This document shows positions 3,961 to 44,788 of a stretch of 54,238 nucleotides of DNA, piece by piece. The stretch's first letter is position 1; every line of letters begins with the position of its first letter. The notes under the pieces were generated by a model. The model had not been told where the DNA came from and searched no databases. It saw nothing but the letters and a program-made list of their open reading frames with translations. Position numbers and translations under genes: made by a program. The stretch comes from a virus. Its lineage: Duplodnaviria; Heunggongvirae; Uroviricota; Caudoviricetes. Where the stretch lies: the IMG/VR virus record IMGVR_UViG_2541047842_000005, one strand, 5' to 3'.

Positions 3961-5079
3961 TTACAAAATGGAATATTCAGGGTAATAAACAAAACGCCCG
4001 ATTTCCCCATGATCCGGGCTGTAAATAATCACCGCTGCCATCCGCCGCGACCGCCATCCGCCATTTGTTGAGTAAGCGTCTTTACCCGCTAACGTGCCGT
4101 GATACTCAACAACGCCTAACGATGATTCAATCAGCCGTTGATGATGCCAGTGCCCGCAATGAGCGTAAACCGCCGCAGACTTGCCAAAGTCTTCTCGCCA
4201 GTCAGAGACGCAGGCAGACAACAAATTTTCAGGTTTTTTGATAGTATGACCGTGATGATATGCAAGGAATGTTTTGCCGTACTGTGTGTGGTGGACGATG
4301 GCAGGTGACACATCAACAGTAACGCGCGGTTCGTCTTCGTAAAAAGCCGCCAGCGCCGCACGTAGCCAGATCATTCCTGACTGGTCGTGATTACCTGATA
4401 ACACCTGAATTTCTACATCCTTATGATTCAACAACATCTTACCTACAGCACGCCGGACCGACCGGATCGCCACATAAACAAGTTTTGCGTAGCGTGAATC
4501 GCAATCTAAGACGTGATTACTTGATGGCGTCACTGGTAATAGCCCGTCCGTGTGAAGCACATCACCGCCGAGAAGCAATACAGCTTTTTCAGACGTTGGT
4601 GCAGCGCCTACAGCGTAGTCAAAGAAGTCATTTAACACGCGTTCAGCGATCCCGGTGTCGTAGCTCTCACCGCATTCAGCTTTATGAGCAAGCGCCCCGA
4701 TATGCAGATCGAATACCGGATAAAGGGCCAGGCTTTTTTGGAAATCAATCTCAGGCACTGGCACAGCCTCCGCGCGTGGTATCTCTTCCGTGAAAGCGTC
4801 ACAAGCCGATTGCATTAGCATTTCCATTTCATCGCGGTCACGGGCTGTTTTAATCCAGCGCATAATCACATTGCCATCCTTATCGACGAGCAATGACTCA
4901 CCATTGACGCCAAAACCCGGCGCGCGACGCGTGGATATTAAACCGCGTTTCGCCAGCCGTGCGCCCAGTCGTTCAACGTTGCGTTTTGCCATTCCATATT
5001 CTTCGGCTATTTGCTTGTAAGTTTTCCCATTGTTGTATTCAGCGATTAATTGCTCGTCGCTGATCTTTCTTTGCGACAT
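3961..5079 (-). CDS. HTH domain fused to calcineurin-like metallophosphoesterase
   Basis: 372 aa; N-terminal HTH (YKQIAEEYGMAKRNVERLGARLAKRGLI); phosphoesterase signature DLHIG...GGDVLHTDG...GNHD; sits immediately upstream of the helicase gene. Confidence 0.65.
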   Translation of the reverse strand: MSQRKISDEQLIAEYNNGKTYKQIAEEYGMAKRNVERLGARLAKRGLISTRRAPGFGVNGESLLVDKDGNVIMRWIKTARDRDEMEMLMQSACDAFTEEIPRAEAVPVPEIDFQKSLALYPVFDLHIGALAHKAECGESYDTGIAERVLNDFFDYAVGAAPTSEKAVLLLGGDVLHTDGLLPVTPSSNHVLDCDSRYAKLVYVAIRSVRRAVGKMLLNHKDVEIQVLSGNHDQSGMIWLRAALAAFYEDEPRVTVDVSPAIVHHTQYGKTFLAYHHGHTIKKPENLLSACVSDWREDFGKSAAVYAHCGHWHHQRLIESSLGVVEYHGTLAGKDAYSTNGGWRSRRMAAVIIYSPDHGEIGRFVYYPEYSIL

Positions 5080-7863: not shown

Positions 7864-8168
7864 CGCATTTTCTCCTATGGTTAGAGTGAACGCGCGGGCG
7901 GGCATCCCATTAGCATTAGATAGCAGTGACTGACCGCTCAACAGATCCCGCCGTTGCGTGATATTTGTTTTTCGCTTCGCAGCGACACCGGATTTTTAAA
8001 GAGCATAAGGTAAGTGCCTTTTTGTGCCTTCAGTTATCTTTTTCCTTGCGTCTTTGCAAGTATGGCCTTACCTTGTCTGCAAGTTTACAAAATGGAATTT
8101 TAAGATCAAGGCTTAAAATACACGTTTTGTGACTTGCATCAAACTTTTTGAGGTTATAGGGTAGCGAC
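7864..8168. promoter_or_regulatory. divergent immunity control region (candidate operators and promoters)
   Basis: Non-coding gap between the divergent cI-like and early-operon genes; repeated half-site TGCAAGT at about 8055-8061 and 8078-8084, and inverted at 8133-8139; also TTTACAAAATGGAAT and TGTGA-N6-TCAAA. Confidence 0.45.
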
Positions 8169-8816
8169 ATGAAAACAAAATGGTATGACTTAGCAAAGCA
8201 GCTCATGCGGGCGCAGGGCATGAGTCAGGATTCACTCGCAGATCTCATGGGGATAACTAAAGGCGGCCTGTCACACTGGCTGAACGGTCGCCGCGAGCCA
8301 AATCTTGAAGATATTGCGCGGATTATGCGGGCGCTTGGTCGTCGGCAGTTCACTGTTACACATGATGGTATGGTCATTGATGATTCTGTTTCTAATACAC
8401 TTCAGGCCGCACCGCCGCGTGATTTAGGTAGTTACCCGGTTATTGACTGGAAGGACACAGTAAACAATATGGATGACACAAGGCGATCAGCATTACCACA
8501 CGTTACGACTAGCGTTATTTGTTCAGATGATAGTTACTGGCTGGTTGCCAAAGGTGAATCAATGAACGCGCCGCAGGGGTTGAGCATCCCGGCGGGGACG
8601 ATGATACTTGTTGACCCGCACGCGCCAGCTATTGACGGCAAACTGGTTATAGCCCAGCTTGAGGAAGGGCAGATACCGACGTTTAAACAGTTGATTATTG
8701 ATGGAGGTCAAAGGCTTTTACGTTCGCTCAATCCGCTGTATCCGCCAATCCCTATGAATCCAGAATCAAAAATTATAGGCGTGGTGGTTGATGCGAAGAT
8801 CGTAAACCTGCCATAA
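8169..8816 (+). CDS. cI: cI-type phage repressor (HTH plus S24 LexA-like peptidase domain)
   Basis: 215 aa; N-terminal HTH (QDSLADLMGITKGGLSHWLNGRREP); C-terminal S24 fold with GESM serine and a downstream FKQL lysine. Confidence 0.85.
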   Translation: MKTKWYDLAKQLMRAQGMSQDSLADLMGITKGGLSHWLNGRREPNLEDIARIMRALGRRQFTVTHDGMVIDDSVSNTLQAAPPRDLGSYPVIDWKDTVNNMDDTRRSALPHVTTSVICSDDSYWLVAKGESMNAPQGLSIPAGTMILVDPHAPAIDGKLVIAQLEEGQIPTFKQLIIDGGQRLLRSLNPLYPPIPMNPESKIIGVVVDAKIVNLP

Positions 8817-8846: not shown

Positions 8847-8939
8847 GCCTGGAAAACGCCAAAACGTAAACAGAAAACGTTATTTATTGTTTAAATATCA
8901 ATAGCATATAAAATATTTTAAAAAAGTATACAAAATGGA

Positions 8940-8968
8940 TTGACTCGATGTTTTACGGGGCGTATATT
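8940..8968 (+). promoter_or_regulatory. sigma70-like promoter (pL analogue)
   Basis: TTGACT, 17-nt spacer, TATATT; a TATACAAAATGG motif lies directly upstream. Confidence 0.4.
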
Positions 8969-9222
8969 GCGAGTCAAAGGAAGGTCGCAGGTAACAAAAG
9001 CAACTTCCTGGCACTTTAAAAATCAGGCTTAACACCTTGTCAACCGTGGAGTAACTCCCCGATGGGGGACCGAAAGCGGCACTGATAACAAGGCGCATGG
9101 GGTGTTTAAAGCGTTACATCCCCCACGAAACCGCACGCAAGGCGACGAGTCAGCTTGCTTGGAGTGAGCAAGGTCACGCCGGGAACGGCGATGATTGCGG
9201 GATTAGTTGAAAGATGTTAAGC

Positions 9223-9316: not shown

Positions 9317-9607
9317 ATGAGCGTTACAATCATGTATGGCAAATGTGACAGTAAACTGAATGCCAGGGAACGCAGAAAAATAAAAAGAGAAAACGAAAGA
9401 AAATCATCACCTGCAATCAATAAAACAGACAATGTGGATAAAGCTATTCGATTTGCAAACGAGGAAAGATGCAAACCAAATAGCATTAAAGAACGTCGCA
9501 AAGGATCAGTAAAATGGTGTACGGAAAATGAAAGCGGCAGCTACTACCACGCAACGCAACCACGCCATTTAGGGGAAAAACCCCTGGATAAAGTCCGCTA
9601 CCATTAA
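9317..9607 (+). CDS. N-like transcription antiterminator (P22 gp24-like, arginine-rich motif)
   Basis: 96 aa, very basic; N-terminus MSVTIMYGKCDSKLNARERRKIKRENERK parallels the P22 N start (YGK..NAKTRRHERRRK) as I recall it. Confidence 0.55.
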   Translation: MSVTIMYGKCDSKLNARERRKIKRENERKSSPAINKTDNVDKAIRFANEERCKPNSIKERRKGSVKWCTENESGSYYHATQPRHLGEKPLDKVRYH

Positions 9608-12981: not shown

Positions 12982-13080
12982 CAGCGTGATTGCGATCACA
13001 TAAATATACATTTTGTGTTGTGATCGCGTATCCGTTTTGTAAACCGAAATCAAAAGGTTTACGGCACGGAGGAAAACAAG

Positions 13081-14006: not shown

Positions 14007-14255
14007 ATGAATGGTGATCCTATGGCTTTATTCAATATGTCAGAGCCGCAATTTAACGCCGTAAAGACTGCCGCCCGCGCCGCGCTTTCGGCCTGCAAAG
14101 CGGAGGTAGAGAAGAACGGCTACAGCGATAAAGCCACGCGGCTGATATTAGAGAAGCATTATCGCAAGGTTGCCCCACTAATCAGCATTGAGCGTTTTGT
14201 GTGGTTGGTTGGGTATCTAAATAATCGGTGGGGTACTGATCAGGATTATTTCTGA
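14007..14255 (+). CDS. hypothetical protein (about 80 aa)
   Basis: Track ORF 13890-14255 overlaps the preceding gene; in-frame ATGs at 14007 and 14022; start uncertain. Confidence 0.35.
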   Translation: MNGDPMALFNMSEPQFNAVKTAARAALSACKAEVEKNGYSDKATRLILEKHYRKVAPLISIERFVWLVGYLNNRWGTDQDYF

Positions 14256-14806
14256 TGGGGGTCATGATGAAAAATGATTTTGGAGGTAGTCACACTCCAA
14301 AGGAAATTAAAGATCTATGGCAGACGCCTAAACCAGTTTTCAGAGGAATGGACCGCGAATTTGAATTTGTCGCGGACGTGGCGGCAAACAAAGCAAACGC
14401 GCTAGTTCCGCGATATATAACCGAAGAAATGGACACGTTGCATTATCCGTGGGGAGCGGTGGCAATGCATGGTGAGTATGTTTGGCTTAATCCACCATAT
14501 TCTAATCCTGGGCCATTCGTTGATAAGGCGGCGCTTGAACATCAACGAAATCATATTGGCTGTGTAATGCTATTGCCCGCTGACATTTCTGTTAGCTGGT
14601 TTATGAACGGCGTGGAGACGGCAAACGAATGCCGATTAATCACGCGCGGGCGTCTGGCGTTTATCAATGCCGCTACTGGTAAGCCAGCAAGCGGAAACAA
14701 TAAGGGTAGCTTGTTCTTGATCTGGCATCCACGGTGCAGACATGAATGTATTTTCACGCAGATAACACGTAAAGAGCTATATGCAAGAGGTGCAGAAAAT
14801 GAATAA
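14255..14806 (+). CDS. phage Dam-family DNA N6-adenine methyltransferase
   Basis: 183 aa; WQTPKPVF N-terminal motif and NPPYS catalytic motif typical of phage Dam-like N6A methylases; alternative ATGs at 14264 and 14267. Confidence 0.75.
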   Translation: MGVMMKNDFGGSHTPKEIKDLWQTPKPVFRGMDREFEFVADVAANKANALVPRYITEEMDTLHYPWGAVAMHGEYVWLNPPYSNPGPFVDKAALEHQRNHIGCVMLLPADISVSWFMNGVETANECRLITRGRLAFINAATGKPASGNNKGSLFLIWHPRCRHECIFTQITRKELYARGAENE

Positions 14807-15119: not shown

Positions 15120-15603
15120 CAGGTTATTAGCCTGCGTTTATGTCGCCGTTTTCGTTATCATCAATCTTATTGTTAACCACTGTGGCCCGTGGGTAATTCC
15201 GATCACCACGGTAGCCGCCGTGTGTGTCAATATGATGATTCGTGATTTTCTGTTATATGACGGCGGCCTTAAATGGTCGGCTACAACATGCGCCGCCGCT
15301 GGCGCAATCACGGTGCTGATAAATTACGACGCCGGAATGGTGGCGATCGCCTCATTCGTCGCGGTTGTTTCCGGTGCGCTTATTTCTGGCGGCGTTTACC
15401 GGGTTTTACCTGGTGATTTCGATTCGAAACGCTGGCCTGCAAATATAGCGTCAGCCATAGGCGATGCGTTGATTTTCCCTACACTATCGTTTATGGCGTT
15501 TATGCCGGAAATATCAGCGATGCAATTCATCTCAAAAATGGCAGCGGTAACGGTGATCACTATCATCATGCGCCGCTATTTCACGTTTGAGGGAAGAAAA
15601 TGA
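15100..15603 (+). CDS. YhhQ/VUT-family membrane protein (queuosine-precursor transporter-like)
   Basis: 167 aa, multi-pass hydrophobic; DSKRWPANIASAIGDALIFPTLSFMAF parallels the E. coli YhhQ segment RRWWLAPTASTLFGNVSDTLAFFFIAF as I recall it; shorter than YhhQ. Confidence 0.55.
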   Translation: MKMVAIDRLLACVYVAVFVIINLIVNHCGPWVIPITTVAAVCVNMMIRDFLLYDGGLKWSATTCAAAGAITVLINYDAGMVAIASFVAVVSGALISGGVYRVLPGDFDSKRWPANIASAIGDALIFPTLSFMAFMPEISAMQFISKMAAVTVITIIMRRYFTFEGRK

Positions 15604-16388
15604 GCAAGGGCAAACATTGGTTAAATAATTGGCTTAGAAGTTGGGTGGTGTGGTCGCTGTACGACGGCAGCGGGTACGCCGTTAAAGATTGGGCGGAAGC
15701 GGGATATAAGTGCTATTGCTTCAATTATGACGGTGCAAATCACGGCGATTATGAAGGCGTTAAAATCATTCATCCTAATATTGAATACGTTAACGTGTGG
15801 ATTGACAGCCATTTCCTGGTAATGTTCTCGCCTGAATTGTCTTCTTATCCAGCACCTGACATTATATTGGGCTTTCCGCCGTGCGACGATCTCGCCGTTT
15901 CAGGCGCTCGCTGGTTCGCTGGTAAACGGGAAAAAGATCCTGCCTTCCAGGTAAAGGCGGCGTATAACGCAAAACTGGTAGAAAAACTGGCGAATATGTA
16001 TAACGTGCCGTGGATGGTGGAAAATCCGGTGGGCGCACTGTCAACGTTATGGCGCAAACCTGATTTTATCTTCAACCCGTGCGCTTACGGTGGCTACCTG
16101 CCGGAAGACGATAAACACCCTGCTTTCCCTGAATACATAGCGGCCCGCGACGCATACACGAAGAAAACTTGTATCTGGTGCGGGAATGGATTTAAGCAGC
16201 CGCTATTCCGGCCTGTGCCAATGCCTGATGAATGGGAAGACAGTAAGCAGCACGCTAAGTTAGGAGGAAAGTCGAAACGCACTAAGATGATCCGCTCACT
16301 AACGCCGCGCGGCTTTGCCCGTGCTGTATTCCTGGCTAACGACCGGGCCATCAATCGCACTACGCTTAACCGCGTTTTACCGGACTGA
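15600..16388 (+). CDS. DNA cytosine-C5 methyltransferase-like protein (divergent motifs)
   Basis: 262 aa; motif I-like VWSLYDGSGYA, PC motif GFPPCDD (PCD rather than PCQ), ENV-like MVENPVG. Confidence 0.5.
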   Translation: MSKGKHWLNNWLRSWVVWSLYDGSGYAVKDWAEAGYKCYCFNYDGANHGDYEGVKIIHPNIEYVNVWIDSHFLVMFSPELSSYPAPDIILGFPPCDDLAVSGARWFAGKREKDPAFQVKAAYNAKLVEKLANMYNVPWMVENPVGALSTLWRKPDFIFNPCAYGGYLPEDDKHPAFPEYIAARDAYTKKTCIWCGNGFKQPLFRPVPMPDEWEDSKQHAKLGGKSKRTKMIRSLTPRGFARAVFLANDRAINRTTLNRVLPD

Positions 16389-16547
16389 AATTTACAAAAT
16401 GGCGCCATTGCGTGATGTGGATCACATAATGGCGCTATTCACCTTGTTCTGGTGTATCCATTTTGTATACTTCAAGCAAACGAAATGCTCTTTAAAAATC
16501 CGGCAGCGCTGAAATGCGTAGAAATCACCTGAAAAGGAGAGAGCATT

Positions 16548-16721
16548 ATGTCTTTTGATGATTACCAATGGCATGACGACTATGAACGAGAGAGCGTCAT
16601 GCGTGCAATGTGCAATGTATGCAGCACAAAGAAAGGAGGCTGTAACGAGTGCAACGAATGCCTAGATCATTGGCTAATGGCCGGACACGCCGAAAGGCTG
16701 AACGAAACAGAGAATCAAAAA
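16548..16721 (+). CDS. small Cys-rich protein (57 aa, zinc-ribbon-like)
   Basis: Strong SD AAAGGAGAGAG; CNVCSTKKGGCNECNEC; overlaps the untrusted upstream extension of the ninG track ORF. Confidence 0.3.
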
Positions 16722-16738
16722 TAATCGGGGTGGTTTTT

Positions 16739-17344
16739 ATGCAGAACCCTAAAAAACCCATAAGACGCCGTTGCAAATGCTGCGGCGTTTTTTTTGAGCC
16801 TAAATATCACAATCAAACGTGGTGCAGCGATGAATGTCTGGAAGAACTGAAGTTTGATCAGCTATGCCGCGATCGTGAAAAGGCTATGAAGGCTATGGAA
16901 CGAAAGAAACACCGTGATAGCCAGCGGGAAGAACGCAACCGGAAGCGGAAGCAGTTAAATCCGCGCAGCTACTGGATTAAACAGGCGCAAAACGTTTTTA
17001 ACGCTTATATACGCGAGCGTGACGCGCGATTGCCGTGCATATCATGCGGGACTTACTACGGTGAGCAATGCGGGTGGGATGCAGGCCATTACAGGACGGT
17101 AGCAGCCGCCGGACACCTTCGCTTCAACGAGGATAATTGTCACAAGCAATGCAGGCACTGCAACCAGACACTAGACGGCAACATCGGAGGGTATCGCCCG
17201 GCGCTGATTCGAAAAATTGGCCTCGCCAGGGTGGTAGCTCTGGAGAACAACAACGAAACTCACAAATGGACGATTGCAGAATGTAAGGAGCTAATAAACA
17301 TCTATCAGGCGAAATTGGACGCCTTAAGGAGAAAGGCAGCATGA
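16739..17344 (+). CDS. ninG: NinG/Rap recombination protein
   Basis: Track ORF 16649-17344; from MQNPKKPIRRRCKCCG (ATG 16739, SD GGGGTGG) it is colinear with lambda NinG (RSYWIKQAQ..FNAYIRERDARLPCISCGT...WDAGHYRT.AAA..LRFNE.N.HKQC..CNQ). Confidence 0.85.
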   Translation: MQNPKKPIRRRCKCCGVFFEPKYHNQTWCSDECLEELKFDQLCRDREKAMKAMERKKHRDSQREERNRKRKQLNPRSYWIKQAQNVFNAYIRERDARLPCISCGTYYGEQCGWDAGHYRTVAAAGHLRFNEDNCHKQCRHCNQTLDGNIGGYRPALIRKIGLARVVALENNNETHKWTIAECKELINIYQAKLDALRRKAA

Positions 17345-17742
17345 ATGAATATTCTTTTAGCCTGCCTTACCCGCCATCGAACAATCGCTATTACCGACAT
17401 TCGCGCGGTTTTCACTATATAAGCAAAGTGGGGAAGGAATATCGGGAACAAGTAAGAGACATCATCGAGCTATTAAATTTAAACATTAACCTACCTTGCC
17501 GACTGGCAATCGCCATCTATGCCGCGCCGCCGGATAACCGGATCAGAGATCTGGATAATATCCCTAAATGCCTTTTTGATAGCCTTACCTATGCCGGATT
17601 TTGGAAGGATGACGGGCAAATTGACTCAATAAAAATTGTCCGCTGCCGGAAGGTAAAAGGCGGACGCTTGTTTATTAAGATCCGCGAACGCGGCGACCTG
17701 CTACCGGATATTGACGAATACGCGACGAATATGTGGGGGTGA
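17341..17742 (+). CDS. rusA: RusA-family Holliday junction resolvase
   Basis: 133 aa; LPYPPSNNRYYRH motif and acidic catalytic region typical of RusA. Confidence 0.8.
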   Translation: MNEYSFSLPYPPSNNRYYRHSRGFHYISKVGKEYREQVRDIIELLNLNINLPCRLAIAIYAAPPDNRIRDLDNIPKCLFDSLTYAGFWKDDGQIDSIKIVRCRKVKGGRLFIKIRERGDLLPDIDEYATNMWG

Positions 17743-17981: not shown

Positions 17982-18160
17982 AAAACGAAATTAAAGATCT
18001 GCAAATAGATGTTCAACGTGACGAGCATGATTTAGCGACAGTCAGACGAATCCAGGCTTTTCACATGCAGGAATTACTTGCGCTGAAAGAGCTTGAAAGA
18101 AAACTGGTGCAAACCATTTCTGATCGCAAACGCCTTATTGCTCGCTATGGGGGCAAATAA
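17978..18160 (+). CDS. hypothetical protein (60 aa)
   Basis: Compact ORF; predicted coiled-coil-like sequence. Confidence 0.4.
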   Translation: MKNEIKDLQIDVQRDEHDLATVRRIQAFHMQELLALKELERKLVQTISDRKRLIARYGGK

Positions 18161-18888
18161 TGAATTTAGAATCCATTCTGAAATTCCACTTTCCCAAATC
18201 ACCGCGATTATCAGGCGAAAGCCGGGGAACATCCCCGGATGCACTTAATACGACGGATGCGCTTACCGCCGCTGGTATGGCGCAATCGCGCGTAGAGCTT
18301 GGCTATAGTGCTTTTTTAGGGAAAATGGAGCTATCGCAAGCTGAAAAACACAGGGCCGTAATTTTGCTTACAGAGCGTTTAAGGGTTATGGCGAAAGATT
18401 ACGAATACGTGATGGAATTAAATGAAGAACAACGCAATGATCTTATTATTCTTGTTGCCGTTTTCGCGTTTCGGGATTACTGCCAAAGTGCGGCTACCGA
18501 AAAGGTTTGCCCTAAGTGCGGAGGTAACGGGCTTTTACCGAATCCATATTGTGAATACACATCGACAGTTTGCTCGCGGTGCAACGGCAAAGGCTACGTT
18601 AAAAACCATTGCCAGAGGTGCAAGGGGCGTGGCGAAGTACCGGATAAAGCAGCCAGCGAAGCGGCGGAAATGCCAGTATTCAAAACGTGCCAGCATTGCG
18701 GCGGGCGCGGGTACTCGCGTTTCCCTGTAGATCTTGTCCGGCAGGCGGTTAATCAGCTTGTTTTCCAGGTAAGCCGATCAACATGGTGGAAGAAATACCG
18801 CGCTTTCTATGAAGACGCCATTGCTGAATTGTTCAAGGAAGAGGCGCGGGCTGATAACGAAATTAAACGAGTTACGCGGGGTGAATGA
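18160..18888 (+). CDS. putative late antiterminator Q-like protein with four CxxCxGxG zinc-finger repeats
   Basis: 242 aa; CPKCGGNG, CSRCNGKG, CQRCKGRG, CQHCGGRG; position directly after ninG-rusA as Q in lambdoid phages; family assignment is from memory. Confidence 0.45.
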   Translation: MNLESILKFHFPKSPRLSGESRGTSPDALNTTDALTAAGMAQSRVELGYSAFLGKMELSQAEKHRAVILLTERLRVMAKDYEYVMELNEEQRNDLIILVAVFAFRDYCQSAATEKVCPKCGGNGLLPNPYCEYTSTVCSRCNGKGYVKNHCQRCKGRGEVPDKAASEAAEMPVFKTCQHCGGRGYSRFPVDLVRQAVNQLVFQVSRSTWWKKYRAFYEDAIAELFKEEARADNEIKRVTRGE

Positions 18889-22424: not shown

Positions 22425-22645
22425 AAATGATTTTAACGTGTAACGAATCGAAATTGGGCTGTTTTGAGGAAGGCGTACAGTACACGGCTGAAAAACCGAT
22501 GGGATTGTCTCCTAAATTTCCGTTTATCGTCGTGACTGACACTTACGGTCACTTATGGTATGCAGGGCCGCTAGGCGGTATTGGTCGTTATGTTGTCCGT
22601 AGTTCGGATGGGGCGATGAAGGTTACTTTTACGGAAGAAACGTAA
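22421..22645 (+). CDS. paralogue family member D (74 aa)
   Basis: FEEGVQYTAE ... VVTDTYGHLWYA; ATG 22421 overlaps the upstream stop; track start 22352 is an unlikely extension. Confidence 0.4.
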   Translation: MKMILTCNESKLGCFEEGVQYTAEKPMGLSPKFPFIVVTDTYGHLWYAGPLGGIGRYVVRSSDGAMKVTFTEET

Positions 22646-22701
22646 ATGTGATCTGTATCACAAGGTTTACGAAATGGCATTGTTTCGGCAGTGCCATTTT
22701 G

Positions 22702-23408
22702 TTGTGCACAGAAAACCCCCAGCTAGGCTGGGGGTTCCGGAAAGCTTTCAGCTTTGAGCCAGTTATTAAAACCCCTTTTGATTTGTTAAAACACCTTGCG
22801 GTCTGGCAACTGCAAGTGTCAAACAAGAAATCAAAAGGGGGTCCCAATGGGGAACGAAAAGAGCTTAGCGCACACCCGATGGAACTGTAAATATCACATA
22901 GTTTTTGCGCCAAAATACCGAAGACAGGTGTTCTACAGAGAGAAGCGTAGAGCAATAGGCAGTATTTTGAGAAAGCTGTGTGAGTGGAAAAGCGTACGGA
23001 TTCTGGAAGCTGAATGCTGTGCAGATCATATCCATATGCTTGTGGAGATCCCGCCTAAAATGAGCGTATCCGGGTTTATGGGATATCTGAAAGGGAAAAG
23101 CAGTCTGATGCTTTACGAGCAGTTTGGTGATTTGAAATTCAAATACAGGAACAGGGAGTTCTGGTGCAGAGGGTACTACGTCGATACAGTGGGTAAGAAC
23201 ACGGCGAAGATACAGGATTACATAAAGCACCAGCTTGAAGAGGATAAAATGGGAGAGCAGTTATCGATTCCCTATCCGGGCAGCCCGTTTACGGGCCGTA
23301 AGTAACGAAGTTGGATGCAAATGTCAGATCGTGTGCGCCTGTTAGGGCGCGGCTGGTAAGAGAGCCTTATAGGCGCATTTGAAAAACCTCCGGCTATGCC
23401 GGAGGATA
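22702..23408 (+). mobile_element. IS200 (IS200/IS605 family) insertion sequence
   Basis: Contains a tnpA colinear with IS200 TnpA; perfect left-end hairpin CCCCCAGC-TAG-GCTGGGGG at 22716-22734, RBS-sequestering inverted repeat at about 22772-22822, right-end hairpin CCTCCGGC-TAT-GCCGGAGG at about 23388-23406; boundaries estimated from the expected ~707 bp length, +/-10 bp. Confidence 0.7.
22847..23305 (+). CDS. tnpA: IS200 transposase TnpA (HUH Y1 transposase)
   Basis: 152 aa from MGNEKSLAHTRWNCKYHIVFAPKYRRQVFY; HxH motif ADHIHMLVEIPP and C-terminal catalytic region RNREFWCRGYYVDTVG match IS200 TnpA; the track ORF 22796-23305 includes an upstream extension. Confidence 0.9.
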   Translation: MGNEKSLAHTRWNCKYHIVFAPKYRRQVFYREKRRAIGSILRKLCEWKSVRILEAECCADHIHMLVEIPPKMSVSGFMGYLKGKSSLMLYEQFGDLKFKYRNREFWCRGYYVDTVGKNTAKIQDYIKHQLEEDKMGEQLSIPYPGSPFTGRK

Positions 23409-23454
23409 TTTATTATAAAGAAGCTGAAGAGAGAACGATGCGGAGGGTAGAAAA

Positions 23455-23884: not shown

Positions 23885-23927
23885 AACACGGGGCCGGATG
23901 GCCCCATCAAATCAGAAGGGTGTAATC

Positions 23928-39625: not shown

Positions 39626-39672
39626 AACCCACCACGCTAACTTGATTTACTGACCATTCCCTTTAGCTTCCT

Positions 39673-39712
39673 TATACAAAATGGAGTCGTTGAAGTAAAG
39701 CCATTTTGTATA
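39673..39712. repeat. inverted repeat TATACAAAATGG - N16 - CCATTTTGTATA in the divergent intergenic region
   Basis: 12-nt arms, perfect; lies between the start of the minus-strand lipoprotein gene and the tape measure gene. Confidence 0.6.
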
Positions 39713-39752
39713 AAATAGATACACAGATCACATTTTTGCATGAGGTTAAATC

Positions 39753-44659: not shown

Positions 44660-44788
44660 AACGCACATCCGCGCCATTTTGTTAACCATGCTTCCGTTTG
44701 AGTAAAATATACATATTGTAAAAACCATGATCAATCCATTTTGGTGTGATTTAGCGTGACGCATATCACAAAATGACAAGGTGAGAAA

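Follow-up and report, generated by a model that had tools for sequence, protein, structure and literature searches.

The t4-nutR2 spacer and its surroundings

The window examined here is one strand of a 54,238-nucleotide stretch of viral DNA (IMG/VR record IMGVR_UViG_2541047842_000005). Region 15600-17400 of the window shares 86-92% identity with seven sequenced Escherichia phages (mEp021, mEp010, mEp013, mEp044, mEp515, mEp554 and MagusPhagus), and the window is an mEp-immI (mEp021-like) coliphage. Phages of the mEp-immI group are Nus-dependent and non-lambdoid, and their prevalence in human faecal isolates is reported to equal that of lambdoid phages (PMC11893012). The locus of interest is a gap at 16389-16547, which follows a putative DNA cytosine methyltransferase gene and precedes the ninF-ninG-rusA-Q block. 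A Pfam search with the 262-aa product of the upstream gene returned no family at E<0.01. Among relatives the 3′ end of this gene occurs in two divergent alleles, and the spacer downstream of it is conserved better than the gene itself. Intergenic placement, here and below, follows the mEp021 annotation; a crude intergenic map based on open reading frames was too noisy. The genes and the elements within the gap are as follows:

8169-8816: CI-like repressor with HTH_3 and S24 domains (Pfam)
14255-14806: phage Dam, PF05869 (Pfam)
15600-16388, plus strand: putative DNA cytosine methyltransferase gene (open reading frame; mEp021 annotation)
16391-16403: TTTACAAAATGGC, first copy of a dispersed motif and left arm of the initial annotation, with arm variants uncompensated on the right
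16398-16439, plus strand: strong RNA hairpin, the predicted terminator t4, with lower stem AAUGGCGCCAUUG/UAAUGGCGCUAUU and the dyad as apical stem
16408-16429: CRP-like 22-mer TTGCGTGATGTGGATCACATAA (core 16411-16426, GATC at 16420-16423), matching the consensus at 14/22 positions and at 9/10 in the core
16444-16449, plus strand: -35-like TTGTTC, 25.5 bp from the dyad centre
16457-16471, plus strand: TCCATTTTGTATA, dispersed-motif copy and right arm of the initial annotation, overlapping -10-like TATACT at 16466-16471
16486-16503, plus strand: nutR2 boxA TGCTCTTTAAAAATCCGG, identical to the nutL boxA
16506-16519, plus strand: nutR2 boxB-like hairpin GCGC-UGAAAU-GCGU (RNA fold)
16548-16724, plus strand: ninF-like open reading frame (mEp021 annotation)
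16739-17344, plus strand: NinG (Pfam NinG, E 9e-67; mEp021 annotation)
18160-18888: Q antiterminator (Pfam)

This gap is the already described t4-nutR2 regulatory spacer of mEp021-type phages. The mEp021 record (GenBank MH706966) places a terminator, TERM_4 (score 79), directly after the methyltransferase gene, and nutR2 has been located downstream of the same C-methyltransferase gene, with t3 and t4 as predictions only (Negrete-Mendez et al., 2025, PMC11893012). In an N-type nut site, boxA precedes a boxB hairpin whose loop is A-rich, both on the transcribed strand, and such an arrangement lies at 16486-16519 in the window, outside the coordinates of the initial annotation. The nutL copy of boxA to which it is identical is on the minus strand at 7988-8005; the nutR1 copy, at 9010-9027, differs from it by three mismatches. 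Given the mEp021 placement of TERM_4 and nutR2 and the presence of boxA and the boxB-like hairpin, the segment originally singled out represents the upstream half of this spacer.

The initial annotation had described that segment as built of nested symmetry. Its individual elements are all where they were said to be: TACAAAATGG at 16393-16402, CCATTTTGTA at 16458-16467, the palindrome ATGGCGCCAT at 16399-16408 and the dyad CGTGA-TGTGGA-TCACA at 16411-16426. Part of this symmetry belongs to t4, in which the dyad and a flanking AATGGCG(C/T)CATTG / TAATGGCGC repeat form a stem of 14-18 bp. The t4 hairpin has a predicted energy of -25.5 kcal/mol (z -5.7) in this genome and -20.2 kcal/mol in the common allele; it is thus a stable, G+C-containing stem-loop (z about -5) of the kind that a terminator stem calls for. 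Besides this genome, only two relatives have the perfect palindrome. In most relatives it is replaced by ATGGCGTCAT, whose T makes a G-U pair in plus-strand RNA. Every one-sided change in the long hairpin retains plus-strand pairs (G-U or A-U), the G-U pairs on that strand only. No compensatory change was found anywhere across 28 distinct sequences of the 16.4 kb structure. After the stem the window has a UAUU tail, where most relatives have UUUU(C/U) and one has CAUU, and the hairpin was called neither by a terminator scan of the window nor by ARNold in five sister phage records. An intrinsic terminator is thus a plausible but weak reading of t4. In the relatives' loci the conserved block starts 5′ of the motif even when the allele of the upstream gene differs.

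Elsewhere in the window, a hairpin at 23888-23907 corresponds to terminator t5 of mEp021, reportedly demonstrated by experiment; here a T run is lacking on the plus strand, and the minus strand has GTTTTAT.

A dyad at fixed distances from promoter-like elements

The dyad at the tip of t4 resembles the binding site of host CRP, as the initial annotation had proposed from its half-sites and 6-bp spacing, and this resemblance proved to be statistically real, conserved, and placed relative to promoter-like elements much as in lac P1. Every 22-mer of the window was scored against the published CRP consensus AAATGTGATCTAGATCACATTT (PMC2504297); the scores are consensus matches with shuffle controls rather than the output of a curated weight matrix. 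Sites with a core of at least 9/10 and an overall match of at least 13/22 number five (at 8125, 12982, 16408, 22644 and 52101), against 0.62 expected from shuffles, and none of 500 shuffles reached five. A sixth site with a 9/10 core lies at 44752, and all six are intergenic. The simpler pattern GTGA-N6-TCAC occurs seven times in the window against 0.44-0.69 in dinucleotide shuffles, no shuffle reaching seven, and it ranks second among all 4- and 5-mer dyads with spacers of 0-12 (p about 2e-6 before correction). The recurrences listed in the initial annotation (12985-13000, 22647-22662, 8128-8143 and 52104-52119) are all present, and to these can be added 44755-44770 and a half-site at 39725-39735.

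Two inverted TGTGA-type half-sites with a 6-bp spacer and a core of 9-10/10 are found at 16411-16426, 12985-13000 and 22647-22662. The bases contacted by CRP are G5, G7 and A8 (PMC2504297), and all six of these key positions match in the sites at 16408, 12982 and 22644, with flanks that are partly A/T-rich. The site at 22644 scores 17/22 and those at 16408 and 12982 score 14/22, where lac P1 scores 15/22. There are two copies of the exact 11-nt consensus half-site AAATGTGATCT, one at 22644 and the other, on the minus strand, at 39725-39735.

Two further results of the dyad scans concern other parts of the window. An exact GTGA-N6-TCAC (GTGAGCAAGGTCAC) also lies at 9164-9177, within the untranslated leader that separates nutR1 from the N-like gene (9317-9607). 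The top match of the dyad scan consists of three similar G+C-rich hairpins at 25649, 35537 and 42103 (CCCGG-N7-CCGGG, in two of them CCCCGGC-N5-GCCGGGG), with TTTTT (a T run), TTTTTTTTT (a T run) and CTATCTTTATT respectively on the 3′ flank; these are probably late-region terminators.

The dyads are not isolated, and most are followed at a set distance by promoter-like hexamers. The other sites, with their surroundings, are:

8082-8146, minus strand: early-left module 5′ of nutL, with TTTGATGCAAGTCACA (core 9/10), TTGATC at +26.5, CCATTTTG and TAAACT
12982-13045, plus strand: second module, with CRP-like CAGCGTGATTGCGATCACATAA, TTGTGA at +25.5, CCGTTTTGT at +39.5 and then TAAACC
22644-22703, plus strand: third module, with AAATGTGATCTGTATCACAAGG (17/22, core 10/10), TTGTTT at +25.5 and CCATTTTGTT at +39.5
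39671-39735, minus strand: module with perfect half-site AAATGTGATCT at 39725-39735 and TTTACT-17-TATAAG, the centre 25.5 bp from the -35
44752-44773: CRP-like TAGCGTGACGCATATCACAAAA (core 9/10), 28.5 bp upstream of the minus-strand promoter candidate TTGATC-17-TATATT
52101-52122: looser CRP-like AAGTGTAACACAGATCACAAAA, overlapping an extended -10 candidate, TGgTAGAAT

The modules at 12.99, 16.42 and 22.65 kb share one spacing: from the dyad centre it is exactly 25.5 bp downstream to a conserved TTG and 39.5 bp to a CCRTTTTGT block that leads into a -10-like hexamer. The sequence between the dyad and TTG/CC(A/G)TTTTGT is unrelated among the three. Four modules have a distance of 25.5 bp from centre to -35, the value of lac P1, and the early-left module (hexamers TTGATC-16-TAAACT) has 26.5 bp; the sites at 44.76 and 52.11 kb depart from this geometry. 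The promoter-like elements of the modules score only about 7.5-8/12. At 16.4 kb, TTGTTC-16-TATACT matches at 8/12 positions, under a scan threshold of 9/12, and is the second-ranked sigma-70-like candidate in the gap; both hexamers are conserved, and the predicted start is at about 16478, 8 nt 5′ of boxA. TTGT is invariant among the 16.4 kb variants seen, with varying flanks that include the bases just after the -35, and GTATCC(A/G)T(T/A)TTGTATACT is near-invariant among relatives. At 12.99 kb, ATCCGTTTTGT is invariant in 23 variants, and the -10-like hexamer (13040) is weak and variable (TAAACC, TAAACT, TAAGCC or TGAACT). At 22.65 kb the native continuation CCATTTTGTTATAAAG, in which ATAAAG follows CCATTTTGTT, reads TGtTATAAA, an extended -10. 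This module stands upstream of the lysis genes and is presumed to be the late promoter.

In the window the 22.65 kb module is interrupted. A 711-bp IS200 copy (22704-23414) sits exactly between CCATTTTGTT and ATAAAG and splits the -10-like TATAAA, which is uninterrupted in relatives such as L044. The insertion contains an Rfam STnc490/art200 region (22714-22837) and a TnpA open reading frame (22847-23305); the STnc490 match was considered as evidence for a start site of the module and set aside, as it is actually the end of the inserted IS200. The -35-like element and spacer of the module occupy the same sequence as a 15-bp hairpin, ACGAAATGGCA...TGCCATTTTGT at 22669-22704 (-20.4 kcal/mol, z -3.7), whose loop is UUCG and whose 3′ side is rich in U; ARNold calls this hairpin a terminator in mEp044 and mEp010. 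At the 12.99 kb module, a 9-bp inverted repeat (GCGATCACA / TGTGATCGC, 12991-13028) shares its left arm with the dyad, so that alternative pairings are possible; an attenuator-like switch was rejected here since the repeat is lost in more distant relatives.

Conservation was followed in orthologous loci from IMG/VR, anchored on nutR2 or on the module pattern, with flanks extracted by local BLAST. In about 60 related sequences the spacer of the dyad varies and the half-sites are constant, except for the right half at 22.65 kb. GTGA and TCAC do not vary among 41 loci of the 16.4 kb site, whose central 4-6 bases take at least 15 forms. This invariance could equally reflect the t4 hairpin, of which the dyad is the tip at this locus only. 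One can ask whether the dyad is merely the apical stem of a terminator that ends the methyltransferase unit before nutR2, its likeness to CRP sites and its other copies having no function at the DNA level. The strength of the hairpin is in keeping with such a role, as are the UUUU tail of the common allele, the TransTermHP-type call of TERM_4 in mEp021 and the retention of plus-strand pairs in all one-sided changes, and lambda-like nin regions are known to hold terminators. Against it, 12.99 and 22.65 kb have the same half-sites but no lower stem: there the dyads form only 5-bp hairpins of -3.9 and -5.7 kcal/mol, no more stable than those of shuffled sequences, which means that what recurs is the sequence and not the fold. 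These two copies also keep identical distances (25.5 and 39.5 bp) from conserved DNA elements. The left half of the 22.65 kb dyad, AAATGTGATCT, stays constant, and its right half degenerates (to CTCGCA, CCCGCA, CCTTCA and others) in about one third of the variants, which abolishes pairing in some of them. The UAUU or CAUU tract of some genomes, the silence of the terminator scan of the window and of ARNold in the five sister phages, and the lack of covariation count against a terminator as well, and we regard this account of the dyad as improbable. One degenerate half is typical of natural CRP sites. The fixed spacing to promoter-like hexamers at the DNA level argues instead for a protein site working with RNA polymerase.

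Outer arms, the dispersed motif and GATC

The nested symmetry of the initial annotation holds as a set of elements and inverted repeats and breaks down as a single structure: its outer arms lack compensatory change and are copies of a motif that is dispersed over the genome. This motif, T(A/T)TACAAAATGG(A/C) and its complement, is 10-13 bp long, lies almost always in non-coding gaps and often overlaps -10-like hexamers (positions 3962, 5244, 8087, 8930, 16394, 16458, 22694, 39676, 39701, 43202, 44674, 52117 and others). The exact 9-mer ACAAAATGG/CCATTTTGT occurs 14 times in the window against 0.86 in shuffles, and CCATTTTGTATA occurs four times against 0.01 expected. Copies of the form TATACAAAATGGA are found at 8927-8939, 8085-8097 and 16457-16469. 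Copies of the motif overlap the -10 of the early-left candidate, mark the two ends of the 16.4 kb segment and lie in the gaps at 3.96, 5.24, 39.7, 43.2, 44.7 and 52.1 kb. The motif may be a shared promoter-spacer/-10 block, or an operator of Rep021 or another phage regulator.

The copy at 8927-8939 adjoins the -35 of the probable early-right promoter, TTGACT-17-TATATT (8940-8968), a near-consensus sigma-70 promoter that lies 3′ of the repressor gene and its terminator and 5′ of nutR1. This promoter is flanked by the two arms of an 8-bp inverted repeat (TTGACTCG/CGAGTCAA).

Could all of the nested repeats (outer arms, inner repeat and small hairpin) nonetheless form one Y-shaped RNA or a DNA cruciform? 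The 96-nt fold is strong on either strand (-35.7 kcal/mol, z -5.5, on the plus strand; -36 kcal/mol, z -6.1, on the minus strand). Yet four of the 28 distinct sequences break the outer TACAAAATG/CATTTTGTA stem with no compensating change, pairing in the small CACC/GGTG hairpin reaches only 75%, and for covariation the whole structure fails to exceed column shuffles. The arms, moreover, belong to the motif found 14 times elsewhere, and an Rfam search returned no family in the gap 16389-16547. Both the pairing of the outer arms as a stem and the single RNA or cruciform were accordingly rejected, the latter being extremely unlikely. CCATTTTGTA and the dyad were also compared informally, by eye, with the consensus sequences of regulators other than CRP: those of sigma-32, sigma-54, IHF, the DnaA box, TyrR, PhoP and LexA all misfit in sequence or spacing.

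A second suggestion of the initial annotation, that methylation of the embedded GATC controls the downstream genes, found little support in the comparison with relatives. GATC is indeed part of the three best dyads and of the 52.1 kb site, as the statement that most copies contain it implied, and it is absent from the sites at 8128 and 44755. In a methylation switch involving Dam or SeqA, GATC would be the functional core of the site, and host Dam together with the phage Dam (PF05869) would set promoter activity. Of the 11 spacer variants that retain ATCACA, 10 have G just before it, and a preprint calls CRP methylation-sensitive, both of which would suit such a switch. At 16.4 kb, however, GATC is kept in 10 of 17 spacer variants and lost in the other seven with the half-sites intact, and it is lost in some relatives at 12.99 and 22.65 kb with the half-sites persisting. 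GATC also belongs to the CRP consensus itself (TGTGATC..GATCACA). Nor is the tetranucleotide depleted or enriched in this genome (257 observed against 254 expected), so that its frequency lends no support to a role for Dam; GATCACA/TGTGATC occurs 10 times against 6.1 expected. A methylation switch, very unlikely on these counts, is not needed as an explanation: a dispensable GATC of ordinary frequency would simply accompany the CRP-type half-site. The Dam-sensitive sites of pap and agn43 likewise have GATC inside a site for a regulator. Those switches need conserved GATCs competing with Lrp or OxyR, unlike the dyad, whose GATC is dispensable across relatives.

cAMP-CRP as a candidate regulator of internal promoters

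Taken together, the dyads are best explained as class-I-like cAMP-CRP sites at internal phage promoters, a reading to which we assign a probability of about 0.5 and in which both binding and promoter activity are predicted from sequence, enrichment, conservation and geometry, as is termination at t4. With a resemblance that is real and conserved, and with lac-P1-like geometry, catabolite control is the leading hypothesis. The 16.4 kb segment would then be the upstream half of a conserved regulatory cassette placed before nutR2 and ninF-ninG-rusA-Q. Its 16-bp dyad would bind a dimeric DNA-binding protein, most likely host cAMP-CRP. With its centre 25.5 bp from the -35, as in lac P1, the dyad would be a class I site at about -60, and bound CRP would bring in RNA polymerase by way of the alpha C-terminal domain. 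Transcription is predicted to begin near 16478, about 8 nt before the nutR2 boxA, and the N-like antiterminator Gp17 could therefore load directly onto the RNA. The t4 hairpin (16398-16439) would halt unmodified polymerase arriving from upstream, creating a point of stop and restart at the 16.4 kb locus alone. The outer arms are two copies of the dispersed motif, which overlaps -10 regions and is probably an operator or a promoter element. The same cassette (dyad, 25.5 or 26.5 bp, -35-like hexamer, CCRTTTTGT and -10-like hexamer) appears to be reused at the early-left module, at 12982-13045, at 22644-22703 and at 39735-39671. Against this reading, in work by Valencia-Toxqui et al. from 2023, polymerase is reportedly envisaged as reaching nutR2 from a distant early promoter and not from a local one.

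Among the closest known parallels is lac P1, a class I promoter with CRP at -61.5 (PMC10199772), whose sequence was verified for the comparison. Both have the TGTGA-N6-TCACA dyad with contact bases G5, G7 and A8 in both halves, and both have the dyad centre 25.5 bp before the first base of a weak -35 hexamer. The consensus match is comparable or better in the phage sites (14-17/22 against 15/22). The spacer between -35 and -10 is 18 bp in lac and 16-17 bp in the phage modules, which sets the predicted centre at about -59.5 to -60.5 rather than at the canonical -61.5. A conserved CCRTTTTGT block in the spacer, and a site that is also a hairpin apex, are both unlike lac P1. Class I CRP sites in general centre near -61.5, -71.5, -82.5 or -92.5.

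A protein encoded by the phage might of course read the same dyad. A dimeric HTH protein (Rep021, a divergent gp14-like HTH protein or another) would recognise TGTGAT-N4-ATCACA as its operator, and the likeness to CRP sites would be coincidental. The sites are conserved across a phage group of one immunity type and stand at promoter-like elements that include the switch region 8020-8170, and dyads of 14-17 bp are common for phage repressors. But the strongest early promoter (8940-8968) has no dyad nearby, though the immunity repressor must control it, and a protein at about -60 does not occlude polymerase. Furthermore, the match extends to the flanking preference of CRP (AAATGTGATCT, twice exact), which would be unexpected for an unrelated protein, and the mEp021 annotation lists no protein of the CRP/FNR type. 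A phage operator therefore seems quite unlikely, and host cAMP-CRP remains the favoured ligand.

The orthologous region of mEp021 has the same order of t4 after the C-methyltransferase gene, nutR2 boxA/boxB, ninF and ninG; the published account of it does not mention CRP or CRP-like sites, a local promoter or the dispersed motif (PMC11893012). As with the nin-region terminators and nut sites of lambda, a terminator and a site of N-type antitermination separate the replication/recombination genes from Q, and the nutR2 boxA resembles the boxA of rrn and lambda, as is well established. The lambda nin region itself is not known to contain a nut site or a promoter. Unlike lambda, the window has a third nut site within about 10 nt after a promoter-like element. 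In a temperate T1-like coliphage, several promoters are direct targets of host CRP (Laganenka et al., 2019, PMC6737242), which couples the development of the phage to the carbon state, as would be the case here. That phage belongs to a different family and CRP represses its promoters (pir, dam, recE); the geometry in the window suggests activation.

If CRP does not act at these sites, the region remains an ordinary, already described terminator/nut spacer. If it does, two additions to that description are possible: a local promoter for nutR2, and a CRP-like site that doubles as the apex of a terminator. A broader reading can also be put forward, tentatively and as an unlikely whole, from the spacing and distribution of the sites: this widespread family of gut coliphages may wire host cAMP-CRP into most of its internal promoters through a reusable cassette, and the dyad before nin and Q, serving also as a terminator tip just ahead of a promoter-proximal nut site, may form a catabolite-gated checkpoint of termination and restart at the entry into late development. 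The promoters covered jointly by this doubtful proposal would be the early-left, two delayed-early, the presumed late and that of an accessory (moron) cassette. Were CRP to act at these sites at all, nutR2 would have a promoter to itself, which would explain why the group has a third nut site as far as 7.5 kb from its early promoter, and the lysis-lysogeny programme would be tied to the carbon state of the host at several promoters at once.
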